64,000 nt of DNA, from positions 62,001-126,000 of the forward strand of contig NW_027590680.1 of the NCBI RefSeq assembly GCF_964213995.1, written 5' to 3'. Shown in pieces: positions 3,781-64,000 of the stretch. Origin of the DNA: Mustelus asterias. Its lineage: Eukaryota. Position 1 is the first letter of the stretch. Each line of letters starts with the position of its first letter. The translations under genes were made by a program, and so were the position numbers. The notes under the pieces were generated by a model. It saw only the letters and a list, made by a program, of their open reading frames with translations. It did no database searches and had not been told where the DNA came from.

Positions 3781-3968
3781 TCTCAGCAGGTCTGGCAGCA
3801 TCTGTATGGAGAGAAAATAACTGATGTTTCAGAGCTTTGACAAAGGGTCATCCAGACAAGAAACATCAGCTCTTTTCTCTCCTTACAGATGCTGCCAGAC
3901 CTGCTGAGATTTTCCAGCATTTTCTCTCTTGGTTTCAGATTCCAGCATCCGCAGTAATTTGCTTTTAT
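3781..3968. mobile_element. Penelope terminal-repeat remnant (family 2, inverted arrangement)
   Basis: ctcagcaggtctggcagcatct ... agatgctgccagacctgctgag inverted repeat; degenerate hammerhead core ttgacaa...gaaac. Confidence 0.65.
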
Positions 3969-3994
3969 AAGGCTGCAGATACCTCCTCCCAAGT

Positions 3995-4700
3995 AACATG
4001 CGTGTGCCCAAGACATCACCACTTGTTTCCCTTATTTCTTTCGCACCCATGGTGCTCTCCGCAGTAAACACAGAGGAGAAGTATTCATTAAAAATCTCAC
4101 CCATCTCCTGTGGCTCCACACACAGATGGCCATACTGATTTTTAAGGGGATCTATTCGCTCTCTAGCCACCCTTTTACTCTTAATATAGTGATAGAACCT
4201 CTTGGAATTTTCTTTAATCTTACCTGCCAGATCCATATCATAACCTCTTTTTGTCCCCCTGATTTCCCTCTTCAGTATTTTCTTACACTTTTTATAATCA
4301 GAGTGATTCACTTGTCCCCGATTGCCTAAACCCAATGTATGCTTCCTTCTTTTACCTGACCAGAGCCTCAATGTCCCTTGTCTGCCAGAGATCCCTAAAT
4401 TTACCATTCTTTCCCTGCATCTTAACAGGAATATACTGCCCCTGGACTCTTGATATCACACTTTTAAAACCTCCCAATTGCCAGTCATTCCTTTCCCTTC
4501 AAACAAATTCACCTAATCGACATCTGCTAGATCCTGCCCATTGCCCACAAAAGTGGCCCTGCTCCAGTTTAGGGCCTTGACCTGTGGACCTGTCCTATCT
4601 TTTTCCAGAACTATTTTGAAACTATTGGTGCTCCCAATAGTGCTCCCTGACTGACACTTCAGTCACTTGCTCCACCTCATTTCTTAACTGTCTAATAGAA
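3995..4700 (-). mobile_element. CR1 LINE internal fragment (endonuclease-RT linker)
   Basis: ORF 3883-4407 contains KIKENSKRFYHYIKSKR and EIFNEYFSSVFT. Confidence 0.8.
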
Positions 4701-4857
4701 AGTGAGTCCAGGAATTGATAATGAAAAATAAGGAGCTGGGAGATGAATTGAACAAGTATTTTGCTTTGGTGTTCACAATAGAGGATACAGTTAAAACTCA
4801 AAAACAGCTGGAAATCAGAATAGCAATTAATTAATAATAATGAATAATAAAATACAA

Positions 4858-5146
4858 TGTAGAAGGAGGCCATTCAGCCCATCGAGCCTGCACCGACAAC
4901 AATCCCATCCAGGCCCTATCCACATATTTACCTGTTAATCCCCCTGATACCAAGTGACAATTTATCGTGGCCAATCCGTCTAACCGGCACATCTTTGGAC
5001 TGTGGAAGGAAACCGGAACACCCGGAGGAAACCCACACAGACACGGGGAGAATGTAGAAACTCTGCACAGACAGCGATCCGAGGCTGGAATTGAACCCGG
5101 ATCCCTGGCGCTGTTAGGCAGCTGCACTAACCACTGTGCCACCGGG
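4858..5146 (-). mobile_element. HE1-type tRNA-derived SINE
   Basis: Reverse complement reads gtggcacagtggttagtgcagctgcc...gggttcaattcc followed by the V-SINE body and a CR1-like tail. Confidence 0.85.
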
Positions 5147-5199
5147 CCACATGTCAGTGCCATCGCCCAACTCCAGCCCTGTGTCAGCTCATCTGGAAC

Positions 5200-5502
5200 C
5201 CTCACCCATTCCATTGTGATGTCACACTCTGACCAATTCCATTGTGATGTCACACTCTCACCCATTCCATTGTAACATCACTCTCACCCATTCCATTGTG
5301 ACCTCACACCCTCACCCATTCCATTGCGACGTCACAGTCTCACCCATTCCATTGTGACGTCACACCCTCACCCATTCCATTGTGACGTCACACCCTCACC
5401 CATTCCATTGTGACGTCACACTCTCACCCATTCCATTGTGACGTCACACTCTCACCCATTCCATTGTGATGTCACACCCTCACCCATTCCATTGTGACGT
5501 CA
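5200..5502. repeat. 28-bp minisatellite (~11 units) containing CRE palindromes
   Basis: Unit ctcacccattccattgtgacgtcacac(c/t); TGACGTCA at 5355, 5383, 5411, 5439, 5495. Confidence 0.92.
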
Positions 5503-5579
5503 GGGCTTCACCCTCCAATCACAATCCCTGCCGGCCTCCCACATGCAGCCTCAATGGCGGCAGTCAGCCCGGGTCTAAC

Positions 5580-5990
5580 ACTACAAGCTGCCGCTCCATT
5601 TGGTACAAAGGGGGGGACCGGGAAGTTCATTTCCGGGGTTTGGGTTTGAACAACATGTTTACAAAGCCTCTCCACCCACCCGCCACATTTATCATTCCCC
5701 GCACGCCGCCCTCTACCTCGTATTGATCTCGCTTCCAGGTTAAAAGCGTCCGTCCGTCGCCATTACCCGCACTGCGCATGCTTCAGGTCCCGCCCCTCAT
5801 TCACTCCGATTGGTTGGAGGACCAGCCGCTCCCGCTCGGTCCTCCAGCCCCGCCCCCTCTTCCTATTGGTCCGGAGCTGCCGTTAAACAGTCCCCGGGCA
5901 TTGTGATGTGGAGCATGCGCAGTGTCATTGCTGTCCTTGGCGCTTGTTTGTCCCGGAGAAGCGGAGTCAGCGTTAGGCGGTGGCTGGGAG
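5580..5990 (+). promoter_or_regulatory. CpG-island ZNF promoter
   Basis: ctgcgcatgc and gcatgcgcag NRF1-like sites, GC boxes, ATTGG boxes; paralogous to 52840-53250 and (inverted) 44500-44650. Confidence 0.7.
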
Positions 5991-6349
5991 GATTTGGAAA
6001 CACTTTGTGGATCCGCAAACCCTTCAGAATCATTGTCAGCTCCCTGGTTTGCAGCTGCGGGGCTTCTCCCTCCCTCCCTCCCGGGAACAGGCCCAGGTTA
6101 ACGGCCCCATCCTGGCTCAGCCACTGGAGGATGGTTCACATCAGAGGATGGGGGAGGGGGACAATAAATAAGAGGTTACACTTTGGCCTCAAATCAATGA
6201 GGACTCTGATCTCTGGGAAGGAAGGAAACCCTGGGAGGTGGGCGGGGAGGATTCACAAACACCCTCTGGAGGCCCCAACACCCCCAATAAGACCCATTGG
6301 TTTTAGTGTCAGTCTGCAGACAGCAGCTGGAGAACTGAACCCAGTAAGA

Positions 6350-6510
6350 GTTTTAACAACACCAGGTTAAAGTCCAACAGGTTTATTTGGTAGCAAATGC
6401 CATTAGCTACCATTAGGTGTTTGCTACCAAATAAACCTGTTGGACTTTAACCTGGTGTTGTTAAAACTCTTACTGTGTTCACCCCAGTCCAACGCCGGCA
6501 TCTCCACATC
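6350..6510. mobile_element. Penelope terminal-repeat foldback remnant (family 1)
   Basis: aacaacaccaggttaaagtccaacaggtttatttggtagc and its inverted copy gctaccaaataaacctgttggactttaacctggtgttgtt. Confidence 0.7.
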
Positions 6511-7068
6511 AGAACTGAACCCAGACAGAGGAGAGGGAAGGAGCAAACTGGGAGTGGAGAAAAGAAATGGTGAGATGGGTTTGGATTTCAGCCCAGGGAG
6601 GAGGGAGGGTGTGTGGGACAGGAATTTATTGATTTGGGGAACAAGAGAGGAAGAAATGTTCCAGAGAATTAGAATTGCCTGTTCAAAATTTCTATCCTGG
6701 ACTGACAGTGATTAATTTTGTAAACTCCTTTTACAGGTGAGGTGAAGAAACATCACATCAAAATCAGACAGAGTCTCGATTCACTTGGACTTAAATATCC
6801 TCAGACTTTGAACGTGGAAGGAGAAATGTTTGTCTTCTGTCTGGAGGAGAAGATTTCAAACATCAGTGTGACAGAAAAAGCACCAAGATACACGCACACC
6901 CGAGTGAGAGTGTTTCAGTGAGTTGACTGTGGAAAGAGCTTTATCCAGTTACGCAGCCTTAAAAAACATCACACCATTCACAGCAAGGAGAAACTGTACA
7001 CGTGTTGTGTGTGTGGATGAGGCTTCAACTGATCGTTTAACCTGGAGAAACATAAGGACACCAGTATC

Positions 7069-58844: not shown

Positions 58845-59283
58845 ATCATCATTGGCCAACTTCCCCTTTGTGACGTCACAGTGGAGTCGTCCCTGAATCA
58901 GCCAATAGGAATCACTCTGCTCCGCGGTGACACCCCGGGTTCCAGTGAGCAGGCCCGGGCGCGCGGACCTGGGAGCCCCGCCCCCACCCATTGTTCCCCT
59001 CCCCCTACACCACATTGAGCCAAGGTTTCCAGGCAACCGGCTGACGGCTCCGGCCAGAGTGAGAAGCCACTCGGTGAGCTCCCCCTCCCCCCGGCCCGGG
59101 ACTGCGCATGTCCAAGGGAGAGGGAAGCTGCGAATTGCAGGGCAGATCCCACCCCCCGACCTTCTTTGGGATTGACGAACGAGTTGGAGGACTGGAAGGA
59201 GTTTGGCCAATCAGAGCGCGGGCTTTGTGTGAATGAAGATTGAGCTTCAGACAGACTCAAACTTCCTCCTGTCGCCAACATCT
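58845..59283 (+). promoter_or_regulatory. CpG-island promoter and putative non-coding exon 1
   Basis: gtgacgtcac CRE at ~58870, CCAAT boxes, actgcgcatg, then ...ccaacatct|gtgagt donor consensus at 59284. Confidence 0.6.
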
Positions 59284-59289
59284 GTGAGT

Positions 59290-60529
59290 GGGAAAGATTG
59301 GATTGTCCAGCCAGTCCACCATGTTGGCCGTTCGCTTTGCGTGTTGGCCAGTATAGTGTGCTCCAGGCAGGGGGCGAGCAGAGGATAAGGAGTTCAAGGC
59401 GGGCTTAATGCGCGCCTTGCGGTGAGCTTTTGGAAATGTGGCCGCTGGGAGGAACGCCTTGGTCGGCGTGAAGTTTCTGTTTCAAGTGCTTGGGTTCGTG
59501 ACTTGTGCAAGAACTTTTTGTTTCGGCTGGGGCTTGTTGAATGCTGCTCTCGCTGGGATTCCTGTGCCTTGAAAGGCGTGGCCCAGGGAGATGCAATCTC
59601 GGAAGACCCAAGCCAGGGAGGAGCCATTTTGGAACTATGGTTTCGGAAGGTTCAGCCGCGGAAGGTGTGACCCCAGACGGTGCAGCCCCAGTGGGTGTGA
59701 TTTTGGAAGATCTGGCCCGGAGTGGTGGACTTTGGAGGACTGCAGTTGAGCGTTGTCGACTTCGGACGGTGGAATGTTGATGGGCGAAGCTCTGGAAGGC
59801 GATGCCTCCGAAATGTTTCACAATTGTATGGTTGTTCATGGATTGTTTGTTATTGTAATATGTGGTTTTCCTGTTATGGTAGTTGGTGGTTTGTTCCGGC
59901 CCCCGTCTATTTTCTTGCGTTATTTGTGGCCTGGGGGGCATCCCCCCCTGGATAAAGTCACCCCCGGGGGGTGTGACATCCACTTGGGGAAAGTTCTGGG
60001 TGGTGAAGCCCCGGATATAGTAACACCAGAGGGATTTTTATTCTCCGGGAGAAAAATTGGGAAGGCAGGCCCGAACTGAGTACCCTGGAGAGACTCTCCC
60101 ACCGCCCCGGCTGAAATTCCGGAAGGGATTCCGGATTGAGTAGGCGGGGTGGTCTCCCCGATTTCCCCCCTCCGGCTGAACATCCGTAAGGTGTAACCCC
60201 CGGATATGAGTACCACTGGAGGGTTGCATCCCCCGGCAGGTGGACAAACCCAGGGGACGGTGCCCTTATGCTTCAGTGTTTATTTTTTGTTGTGTACAGT
60301 TGTAGTGTTGTGTTAATGTTTGTAGATTTGTAGATTATGATTTGTAAATGGAGGTGTATTTTGAGGGCAATGCCCTGGAAAACTGTAATTGACGATGAAC
60401 CCTTCCGAAATGGAAGGTAGTAACTGATAAATGGATGGCGTTAGCCATTGGTAATGTATTTTTTCACATTTGTTCTTTGTGCATTTGTAATTGTTTTGTA
60501 TTAACGTATTTGTAATAAACAAAAAGAAA
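59290..60529 (+). mobile_element. Unclassified non-coding A-tailed element, copy 1 (one structured module)
   Basis: Bounded by ccaacatctgtgagt at 59275-59289 and 60530-60544; ends aataaacaaaaagaaa. Confidence 0.6.
59928..60455 (+). ncRNA. Predicted structured RNA module with five GAA/AGUA loop E-type hairpins
   Basis: GAA/AGUA pairs at 60005/60019, 60051/60079, 60113/60139, 60178/60209, 60397/60419 inside stems; pairing-preserving substitutions in module B. Confidence 0.65.
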
Positions 60530-60544
60530 CCAACATCTGTGAGT

Positions 60545-62397
60545 GGGAAAGATTGGATTGTCCAGCCAGTCCACCATGTTGGCCGTTCGCTTTGCGTGTT
60601 GGCCAGTATAGTGTGCTCCAGGCAGGGGGCGAGCAGAGGATAAGGAGTTCAAGGCGGGCTTAATGCGCGCCTTGCGGTGAGCTTTTGGAAATGTGGCCGC
60701 TGGGAGGAACGCCTTGGTCGGCGTGAAGTTTCTGTTTCAAGTGCTTGGGTTCGTGACTTGTGCAAGAACTTTTTGTTTCGGCTGGGGCTTGTTGAATGCT
60801 GCTCTCGCTGGGATTCCTGTGCCTTGAAAGGCGTGGCCCAGGTAGATGCAATCTCGGAAGACCCAAGCCAGGGAGGAGCCATTTGGGAACTATGGTTTCG
60901 GAAGGTTCAGCCGCGGAAGGTGTGACCCCAGACGGTGCAGCCCCAGTGGGTGTGATTTTGGAAGATCTGGCCCGGAGTGGTGGACTTTGGAGGACTGTAG
61001 TTGAGCTTTGTCGACTTCGGACGGTGGAATGTTGATGGGCGAAGCTCTGGAAGGCGATGCCTCCGAAATGTTTCACAATTGTATGGTTGTTCATGGATTG
61101 TTTGTTATTGTAATATGTGGTTTTTCTGTTATGATAGTTGGTGGTTTGTTCCGGCCCCCGTCTATTTTCTTGCGTTATTTGTGGCCTGGGGGGCATCCCC
61201 CCCTGGATAAAGTCACCCCCGGGGGGTGTGACATCCACTTGGGGAAAGTTCTGGGTGGTGAAGCCCCGGATATAGTAACACCAGAGGGATTTTATTCTCC
61301 GGGAGAAAAATTGGGAAGGCAGGCCCGAACTGAGTACCCTGGAGAGACTCTCCCACCGCCCCGGCTGAAATTCCGGAAGGGATTCCGGATTGAGTAGGTT
61401 CGGGGTGGTTTCCCCATTTCCCCCCTCCGGCTGAACATCCGTAAGGTGTAACCCCCGGATATGAGTACCACTGGAGGGTTGCATCCCCCGGCAGGTGGAC
61501 AAACCCAGGGGACGGTGCCCTTATGCTTCAGTGTTTATTTTTTGTTGTGTACAGTTGTAGTGTTGTGTTAATGTTTGTAGATTTGTAGATTATGATTTGT
61601 AAATGGAGGTGTATTTTGAGGGCAATGCCCTGGAAAACTGTAATTGATGATGAACCCTTCCGAAATGGAAGGTAGTAATTGATAAATGGATGGTGTTAGC
61701 CATCGGTAATGTATTTTTCAGATTTGTTCTTTGTTCATTTGTAATTGTTTTGTAATATCGTGTTTGTACTAACCAACGGAAAATCTTTGCATTGTTTGTG
61801 GCCTGGGGGGTATCCCCCCCCCTCCCCTCCCCTCCCCTGGATAGAGTGACCCCCGGGGGGTGTGACATCCAGTTGGGGAAAGTGTCTGGGGCACCCAGAG
61901 GGGTAACACCGGGGGGGGTTTTGTTCTCCGGGAGAAAAATTGGGAAGGCAGGCCGAATTGAGTATCCCGGAGAGCTTTTCCCACCGCCCCAGCCGAAAAT
62001 CCGGAAGGCAGTCCGGATTGAGTAGGTTCGGGGTGGGTTTCCTGTCCCCCCGCCTCCAGTCGAACATCCGTCAGGTGGAACCCCCGGACCTGAGTACCTC
62101 TGGAGGGTTGCATCCCCCGGCAGGGGAAAAACCCGGGAGGCGGTGCCCTGGAGGGCGGCGGATATGCTGCAATGTTTATTCTTGTTGTGTTGTACTAATG
62201 TTTGTCACTTTGTAGATTATGATTTGTAATTGGAGGTGTATTGAGAGGGCAATGCCCTGGAAAACTATGACCGTTAGTGAACCCTTCCGAAATAGAAGAT
62301 AGTAACTGATAAATGGATGGCGTTAGCCATTGGTAATGTATTTTTTGTGTATTTGTAATTGCTTTGTATTAACGTATTTGTAATAAACAAAAAGAAA
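60545..62397 (+). mobile_element. Same element, copy 2 (modules A ~61180-61790 and B ~61797-62397)
   Basis: Near-identical to copy 1 plus a second diverged ~610-bp module; followed by ccaacatctgtgagt at 62398-62412. Confidence 0.6.
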
Positions 62398-62412
62398 CCA
62401 ACATCTGTGAGT

Positions 62413-64000
62413 GGGAAAGATTGGATTGTCCAGCCAGTCCACCATGTTGGCCATTCGCTTTGCGTGTTGGCCAGTATAGTGTGCTCCAGGCAGGGGGCGA
62501 GCAGAGGATAAGGAGTTCAAGGCGGGCTTAATGCGCGCCTTGCGGTGAGCTTTTGGAAATGTGGCCGCTGGGAGGAACGCCTTGGTCGGCGTGAAGTTTC
62601 TGTTTCAAGTGCTTGGGTTCGTGACTTGTGCAAGAACTTTTTGTTTCGGCTGGGGCTTGTTGAATGCTGCTCTCGCTGGGATTCCTGTGCCTTGAAAGGC
62701 GTGGCCCAGGGAGATGCAATCTCGGAAGACCCAAGCCAGGGAGGAGCCATTTTGGAACTATGGTTTCGGAAGGTTCAGCCGCGGAAGGTGTGACCCCAGA
62801 CGGTGCAGCCCCAGTGGGTGTGATTTTGGAAGATCTGGCCCGGAGTGGTGGACTTTGGAGGACTGTAGTTGAGCGTTGTCGACTTCGGACGGTGGAATGT
62901 TGATGGGCGAAGCTCTGGAAGGCGATGCCTCCGAAATGTTTCACAATTGTATGGTTGTTCATGGATTGTTTGTTATTGTAATATGTGGTTTTCCTGTTAT
63001 GGTAGTTGGTGTTTTGTTCCGGCCCCCGTCTATTTTCTTGCGTTATTTGTGGCCTGGGGGGCATCCCCCCCTGGATAGAGTCACCCCCGGGGGGTGTGAC
63101 ATCCACTTGGGAAAAGTTCTGGGTGGTGAAGCCCCGGACATAGTAACACCAGAGGGATTTTTATTCTCCGGGAGAAAAATTGGGAAGGCAGGCCCGAACT
63201 GAGTACCCTGGAGAGACTCTCCCACCGCCCCGGCTGAAATTCCGGAAGGGATTCCGGATTGAGTAGGCGGGGTGGTTTCCCCCATTTCCCCCCTCCGGCT
63301 GAACATCCGTAAGGTGTAACCCCCGGATATGAGTACCACTGGAGGGTTGCATCCCCCGGCAGGTGGACAAACCCAGGGGACGGTGCCCTTATGCTTCAGT
63401 GTTTATTTTTTGTTGTGTATAGTTGTAGTGTTGTGTTAATGTTTGTAGATTTGTAGATTATGATTTGTAAATGGAGGTGTATTTTGAGGGCAATGCCCTG
63501 GAAAACTGTAATTGATGATGAACCCTTCCGAAATGGAAGGTAGTAATTGATAAATGGATGGTGTTAGCCATCGGTAATGTATTTTTCAGATTTGTTCTTT
63601 GTTTATTTGTAATTGTTTTGTAATATCGTGTTTGTACTCACCAACGGAAAATCTTTGCATTGTTTGTGGCCTGGGGGGTATCCCCCCCCCCCCCCTGGAT
63701 AGAGTGACCCCCGGGGGGTGTGACATCCAGTTGGGGAAAGTGTCCGGGGCACCCAGAGGGGTAACACCGGGGGGGGTTTTGTTCTCCGGGAGAAAAATTG
63801 GGAAGGCAGGCCGAATTGAGTATCCCGGAGAGCTTTTCCCACCGCCCCAGCCGAAAATCCGGAAGGCAGTCCGGATTGAGTAGGTTCGGGGTGGTTTTCC
63901 TGTCCCCCCGCCTCCAGTCGAACATCCGTCAGGTGGAACCCCCGGACCTGAGTACCTCTGGAGGGTTGCATCCCCCGGCAGGGGAAAAACCCGGGAGGCG
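62413..64000 (+). mobile_element. Same element, copy 3 (two modules, cut by the window edge)
   Basis: Near-identical to copy 2. Confidence 0.6.

Follow-up and report, generated by a model that had tools for sequence, protein, structure and literature searches.

A young non-coding retroposon stacked at the first splice donor of a zinc-finger gene family in Mustelus asterias, likely a passenger of Tx1-like retrotransposons

In this study, we analyzed a stretch of 64,000 nucleotides from Mustelus asterias (C648:62001-126000; hereafter the window, with positions counted from its first letter), whose last part, from 59275 onward, is filled by tandem copies of an element and its target sequence. 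The element is a young, target-preferring and non-coding retroposon, which we class with the Tx1 passengers and whose target is unusual. In our judgement, it is quite probable that this young retroposon is stacked at the first splice donor of a multicopy C2H2 zinc-finger (ZNF) gene family, and that a reverse transcriptase (RT) and endonuclease of the Tx1 clade copy it there. The genome searched was 3.68 Gb, and the genome-wide pattern searches score best candidates only.

The target is a 15-mer, CCAACATCTGTGAGT, which a pattern match over the whole window found at 59275, 60530 and 62398. The second and third copies come right after AATAAACAAAAAGAAA, and every unit begins with GGGAAAGATTGG; the original prediction had described the array in the same way. 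When up to two mismatches were allowed, there were three matches against 0.25 expected, and none of 100 shuffles reached three. The array continues past the window: unit 3 extends to window-equivalent position 64255 and is followed by a fourth unit, after which the last 15-mer (65511) leads into intron sequence (AAAACAC), as had been anticipated for the end of the array. The four units have periods of 1255, 1868, 1858 and 1255 bp, and the final two 15-mers are a variant (CCACC...).

All features of the array are on the plus strand. Each unit consists of a 625-bp module A and one or two copies of a 3′ module B of about 615 bp, and this difference in copy number explains the difference in unit length; the B copies are 79% alike. 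According to the module alignment and to scans for open reading frames (ORFs) and Pfam domains, unit 1 begins with a non-coding 5′ module A (59290..59914), followed by a 615-bp module B (59915..60529) with GC-rich stems, then a U-rich part, AATAAA at 60514 and the tail AAAAAGAAA. After the second 15-mer (60530..60544), unit 2 (60545..62397) includes module A, an internal B that has lost the poly(A) signal, and a diverged terminal B2 (61787-62397, AATAAA at 62382). The third 15-mer (62398..62412) leads into unit 3 (A, B and B2; 62413..64000), which runs beyond the window. The element had been called A-tailed, and indeed the tail is A-rich and accompanied by AATAAA, but it is the fixed AAAAAGAAA and not a variable poly(A). 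In addition, the junction between promoter and head is spanned by contigs of public run X1 (59259-59437), and the junction of tail, 15-mer and head by those of run X2 (60394-61119). The two runs come from two studies, and an assembly artefact, which had been named as another possible origin of the array, is therefore excluded for these junctions.

The first 15-mer belongs to a host gene. A multicopy C2H2-ZNF gene has its promoter and the 5′ portion of its exon 1 at 58850..59232 on the plus strand, as judged from the sequence and from paralogous promoters ahead of arrays; the promoter motifs include TGACGTCA at 58871 and CCAAT at 58902 and 59207. The 3′ part of exon 1 (59233..59283, plus strand) carries the start of a short upstream ORF (ATG at 59233) and ends at 59283. 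The left 15-mer (59275..59289, plus strand) contains the donor CATCT|GTGAGT, with its GT at 59284-59285, and we infer a bottom-strand nick opposite 59274/59275. Five contigs of run X1 depart from the window after 59284 and continue behind TTTTACAG into exon-2-type sequence of paralogues, which places the donor at CATCT|GTGAGT within the 15-mer; the type of this run is not on record, and processed copies in DNA could also give spliced junctions. An acceptor and an intact ZNF exon 2 with seven fingers were found downstream of the array, from about C648:129104. Paralogous promoters precede the arrays at most of the loci fetched, with matches of 72-99%, and the promoter in the window shares 99% identity with that of locus L075. 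It is moderately CpG-rich (observed/expected 0.59, GC 0.61). The idea of a unique CpG-island promoter was thus abandoned in favor of one member of a multicopy family.

The same target is used across the genome. There are 168 exact element heads, and 99 of the 100 heads among the matches listed follow the 15-mer or a close variant; the remaining one (C11) is a chance match without an element behind it. Ten of these 99 lie in flanks of long terminal repeat (LTR) type (C3, C19 and C26). Outside the LTR loci, exon-1 sequence precedes 60 of 60 array starts fetched, a set that includes segmental duplicates and from which two tail-variant rows were dropped. Furthermore, the exact empty-site pattern gave at least 82 matches and the control pattern none. 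Both occupied and empty paralogous sites therefore exist as predicted. The arrays comprise 1 to 12 units, 10 of 13 single-unit loci have identical 15-mers on the left and right, and the occupied promoters diverge to about 50% identity. With regard to a possible origin of the left 15-mer in the donor RNA, the variant CCAACC is common to four loci, whose far promoters are about 50% alike in 5 of 6 pairs and whose A modules do not cluster (7-13 mismatches, and 1 in a related pair). The proposed site specificity holds as a strong preference but is not strict, as 22 dispersed copies and the LTR-resident arrays show.

These dispersed copies indicate how the element moves. A tail pattern that excluded the canonical site found 58 tails, and the 22 on large contigs were examined. 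All 22 copies are truncated at the 5′ end and have an intact 3′ end, and 9 of them have exact target site duplications (TSDs) of 13-16 bp; 5′ truncation and such TSDs are the signature of target-primed reverse transcription, and the original prediction is upheld on this point. ZNF promoter or intron sequence was found beside none of the 22. Their junctions begin with CCA (11), TCC (8), CCC, CCG or GCT, which fixes the 3′ boundary at AAGAAA|CCAAC. The 3′ junction is exact and lies 9 nt upstream of the donor GT. Meanwhile, the 5′ junction is invariant at the target whereas the TSDs of dispersed copies vary, and the 15-mer is thus probably present at the 5′ end of the RNA. At L058, L222 and L225, A-runs start 2-4 nt past the tail, which favors read-through transcription. 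At L058:944-1018 and L094:6353-6266, the tail and A-run are followed by a second exon-1 copy of 54-70 nt and then by the next unit.

The element has no coding capacity of its own. No ORF over 130 aa was found on its plus strand, and neither of the two frames tested had a Pfam match, in agreement with the earlier statement that no RT or transposase is encoded. The Rfam search gave no match at the gathering score and, as a difference from R2, no ribozyme was found in the element. In addition, no tRNA-derived head was found in L001, and the tRNA and Rfam searches revealed no small-RNA-derived head of the kind that defines short interspersed nuclear elements (SINEs; tRNA, 7SL or 5S) or SINEU. Module B folds better than its shuffles (z -3.8), but two-sided changes occur at only 4 of 150 predicted pairs among the nine variants compared.

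The enzyme likely comes from Tx1-like long interspersed nuclear elements (LINEs). Their ORF2, a stop-to-stop frame of 1304 aa with an APE endonuclease and RT, is 55% identical over residues 1-700 to the Xenopus Tx1 ORF2 (YTX2_XENLA), and Tx1L is the closest named relative. We found 348 junctions of a purine tail with the 15-mer and intron; among 100 listed, 93 have Tx1-type tails and 7 that of this element. The Tx1-type donor junctions include truncated LINEs as well as forms headed by tRNA-Arg, tRNA-Gly/Asp and tRNA-Val. At non-canonical sites, the junctions of the donor-nick Tx1 subfamily start with CC in 96 and with CCA in 85 of the 100 listed, and TSDs of 9-16 bp were found in 12 of 30. 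Moreover, a copy of the element (L220) and a Tx1 copy (L286) occupy the identical site of one repeat. The same nick and the similar duplication length suggest that Tx1-like LINEs are likely the mobilizers of the element. A search for a long RT-encoding element sharing both ends had been proposed; Tx1-like LINEs do use the same target site, but none of those found shares either end.

A young Tx1-like family includes many open 1304-aa frames (for instance, L151:2646-6557 on C108). It carries an exon-1-like leader, and its insertion site is a (TC)n stretch that precedes the donor by about 50 bp; older copies are at the donor nick. Other passengers of the donor were also seen. Gly/Asp-like and Arg tRNA-headed forms and a tRNA-Val-headed Tx1 at the same donor (L015:~685-757, L190:8861-8935 and L086:2902-2976) have Tx1 tails, and each has its own fixed apparent duplication (6, 14 and 8 bp). 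In turtle, gene model P0022 fuses a Tx1-like RT with KRAB and C2H2 domains and may hint at Tx1 insertions in ZNF genes elsewhere.

Several results weigh against mobilization by the Tx1 copies found here. Three Tx1 tail types were seen and none aligns with the tail of the element, nor was any Tx1 found that shares its 3′ or 5′ end. The donor-site Tx1 copies sampled diverge by 3.3% from the majority state, compared with 0.8% (module A) to 1.8% (last 110 nt) for the element. Reading frames are broken in the copies that best match the older endonuclease type (91-95%). Of 30 loci with the intact young subfamily, 26 have the insertion about 50 bp upstream and none has it at the donor nick. As for the insertion process and the role of the host gene, 13 of the 22 dispersed copies lack a short TSD (no duplication in 12, a long one in 1), and 3 of 13 single-unit loci have a left 15-mer unlike the right one. 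The 70-nt leaders vary between loci, and a long RNA leader therefore does not usually replace the host exon. Neither a transcript of the element nor splicing of an occupied gene was observed among contigs, where matches to the intron and exon 2 were swamped by repeats.

Based on these results, we propose the following mechanism. RNA polymerase II would transcribe, from the ZNF promoter, an unspliced RNA composed of the exon-1 leader, the 15-mer, the element and a few bases of the downstream 15-mer. The Tx1 ORF2 protein would nick the bottom strand at the target; the last bases of the RNA would anneal to the primer end, and its 5′-terminal 15-mer would anneal to the target. Pairing at both RNA ends would give an invariant full-length junction and regenerate the site on both sides, making repeated insertion possible. 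Since the first donor is intact, the stack would be spliced out within intron 1. The transduced exon-1 leader supports, indirectly, that the element may be co-transcribed from the host promoter. Unequal crossover and segmental duplication would then have expanded some arrays.

The growth of the arrays by re-insertion at a regenerated target, as the original prediction had it, was confirmed in part. Unit 4 is closer to copies elsewhere in the genome (0.2% divergence) than to its neighbors (0.9-1.3%; units 1 and 3 differ by 0.4%), and site variants recur at adjacent junctions (C648, L071, L076 and L079); both fit sequential insertion. However, C140 has 12 units with a dimer period of 3746 bp, and some loci look like segmental duplicates (L052/L088, L059/L092 and L141-143). 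Thus, crossover and segmental duplication also act. At L051, L059, L067, L072 and L080, the tail runs directly into position 18, 26 or 38 of the following head; the fusions lie at short repeats of the target start and would have arisen by deletion or by insertion into the head. In an older subfamily (L137, L141-L143, L145 and L146), the first 118 nt are swapped for a leader that ends in a diverged target copy.

The duplicated loci, the dimer array of C140 and the near identity of the window promoter to that of L075 would also suit a single ancestral insertion that segmental duplication, gene conversion and unequal crossover distributed over the paralogues, in which case site specificity is simply inheritance. 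This explains part of the array growth but not the targeting: truncated dispersed copies have their own TSDs, occupied promoters are as little as about 50% identical, unit 4 is nearer to other loci than to its own neighbors, and other families (Tx1 and tRNA-headed forms) are at the same nick. We consider it very improbable as an account of the whole. Still harder to credit is a sequence-specific DNA transposon of the Dada kind, or a tyrosine-recombinase element with the 15-mer as core site. The fixed 15-mer at both ends agrees with this idea, and one neighboring passenger has a duplication of 6 bp, within the 6-7 bp range of Dada, but that passenger has a Tx1 tail, and no transposase or recombinase was found in the element. 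This idea is largely refuted by the 5′ truncation, the intact 3′ ends and, at unrelated sites, TSDs that vary between 13 and 16 bp. Dada itself, which has a transposase of the DDE family and targets small-RNA genes, is excluded by the TSD length, the truncation and the ZNF target.

Rather more weight, although still a small share, goes to an internally deleted or 3′-derived passenger of an unsampled or extinct autonomous LINE, from another Tx1 family or another clade, that shares the 3′ module. The tail has no homology with any Tx1 found, the element and the donor-site Tx1 copies differ in age, module B is structured like a 3′ untranslated region, and searches that score best candidates leave room for such a LINE. 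Among the top candidates, no autonomous element with this tail was found via the diverged module, non-canonical tails or ORF scans of the fetched loci. Against this possibility, all 22 dispersed tails lead upstream into modules of the element only, no ORF is joined to module B at any fetched locus, and the element uses the sites of two different Tx1 subfamilies. A passenger copied by Tx1-clade LINEs therefore remains our preferred interpretation.

The second Tx1 subfamily concerns the LTR-resident copies (C3, C19 and C26). These have 26 nt of exon 1 ahead of the head, plus LTR sequence, and then run into TCCTTGATTGAG; the exon-1 and LTR sequences suggest that transcription began in upstream host sequence on two occasions. 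Of the informative LTR-resident tails, 12 of 12 have a short deletion in module B, compared with 6 of 144 ZNF-site tails. All six dispersed copies with TCCC junctions share this deletion and a linked T, compared with none of four informative CCA copies. Within the first 9 bases, the six copies agree with the LTR flank at 4-8 positions; only one is in LTR-like sequence, and they represent one lineage and not six independent tests. According to these alignments, one sub-lineage has switched target, and its dispersed offspring land at sites resembling its LTR flank.

An intact Tx1 subfamily with 88% ORF2 identity and a different tail (L314-L318; C1, C14, C2, C11 and C69; 117 non-canonical junctions) inserts at the homologous LTR site, near a CCAAT box of the LTR family. 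Among 100 of its junctions listed, 85 begin with CTAC and 5 read CTCCCTGATT like those of the element, and a similar TRATT motif follows in many; the register of these junctions is ambiguous within the microhomology. Across the subfamilies, the endonucleases differ at about 12 residues; L189 is a mosaic, and the older type was found at CCAAC as well as GCAAC junctions. The new LTR target could have been set by that Tx1 enzyme, by pairing of the read-through flank, or by both. We tentatively suggest, at less than even chances, that read-through bases from the 3′ flank of the master copy pick the landing site among the possible cuts of a Tx1 endonuclease, so that the site is inherited through the RNA. 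If so, one jump to a new promoter would retarget the passenger, as in the LTR sub-lineage, and the passenger could use several Tx1 enzymes without a common tail. The element and the several Tx1 lineages would then be a series of naturally occurring changes of target around the splice donor of protein-coding genes. In any case, intact ORF2 copies exist for two different targets, and the lineage-linked switch offers a vertebrate test case for the roles of endonuclease and RNA-primer pairing in LINE target choice. At L044:~3900-6900 (C3), the element lies in an LTR, the target duplication is about 270 bp including a locus-specific insert, and the 5′ junction falls in LTR homology. At L045-L047 (C19), the units are followed by one to three tandem tail fragments of 151 nt, with a 15-bp duplication of the LTR site between each.

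R2 elements are autonomous, target ribosomal DNA and have a different type of endonuclease. Annealing of read-through RNA to the target raises the insertion of R2Ol (PMC6530143). As described there for R2 and R1, dependence on host transcription and pairing of 3′ read-through bases with the nicked primer are features that we infer for this element. The nearest precedents are the crocodilian SINEU-3 and SINEU-1 with Tx1-Mar (PMC4494074), which are likewise non-coding and target-specific. SINEU-3 forms tandem copies around a 16-bp TSD, and that paper reports no LINE with the 3′ end of SINEU-1 (PMC4494074). SINEU elements are described as having no internal promoter and 5′ extensions from the target, and were assigned to Tx1 by the common target (PMC4494074). 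However, they have U1/U2 heads, are mostly under 500 bp and target a Mariner transposon (PMC4494074), whereas the present element measures 1.2-2.5 kb, lacks a head derived from a small RNA and inserts at the splice donor of protein-coding ZNF genes.

The candidate mobilizer shares the sequence-specific APE endonuclease of the Tx1 clade, and as some crocodilian Tx1 families prefer LTR elements (PMC4494074), one subfamily here does so too. The targets given for Tx1-clade families (Keno, Kibi and Koshi) are transposons, small nuclear RNA (snRNA) and 5S genes, satellites and microsatellites (PMC4494074, PMC1950540); the first exon of an RNA polymerase II gene is not among the targets named in these texts, and the present element itself encodes nothing. 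SVA and Sadhu are also long non-coding passengers, and among the 5′-transducing groups of SVA, one subfamily uses the promoter of a host gene and includes a piece of this gene (PMC4494074). However, SVA is mobilized by L1 and, in the account given there, is not described as returning to the gene family of the promoter (PMC4494074). In the literature surveyed, with Repbase, subscription journals and the supplements of PMC4494074 outside its scope, we found no Tx1 or passenger targeting ZNF first exons; the targets reported there for target-specific retroelements are ribosomal RNA, snRNA or tRNA genes, microsatellites and other transposons. In the present case, a large protein-coding family provides the safe haven at its first splice donor: the donor is preserved by the duplication, the element is likely transcribed from the host promoter, and intron 1 would conceal it. 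A substantial fraction of the donors in the ZNF family carries the element, a Tx1 copy or a tRNA-headed passenger, which could affect ZNF expression and recombination of the clusters.

In addition, some features of the ZNF genes were observed. The rest of the window (1-57400) includes several ZNF coding exons on both strands; it has no further match to the exon-1 donor, the first exons of these genes being diverged or elsewhere. At many loci (such as L053, L061 and L067), ZNF promoters stand back to back, with an exon-1/intron unit on either side. Finally, a 28-bp tandem repeat of 10.9 copies at 5201-5502 in the window contains TGACGTCA, as does the ZNF promoter at 58871.

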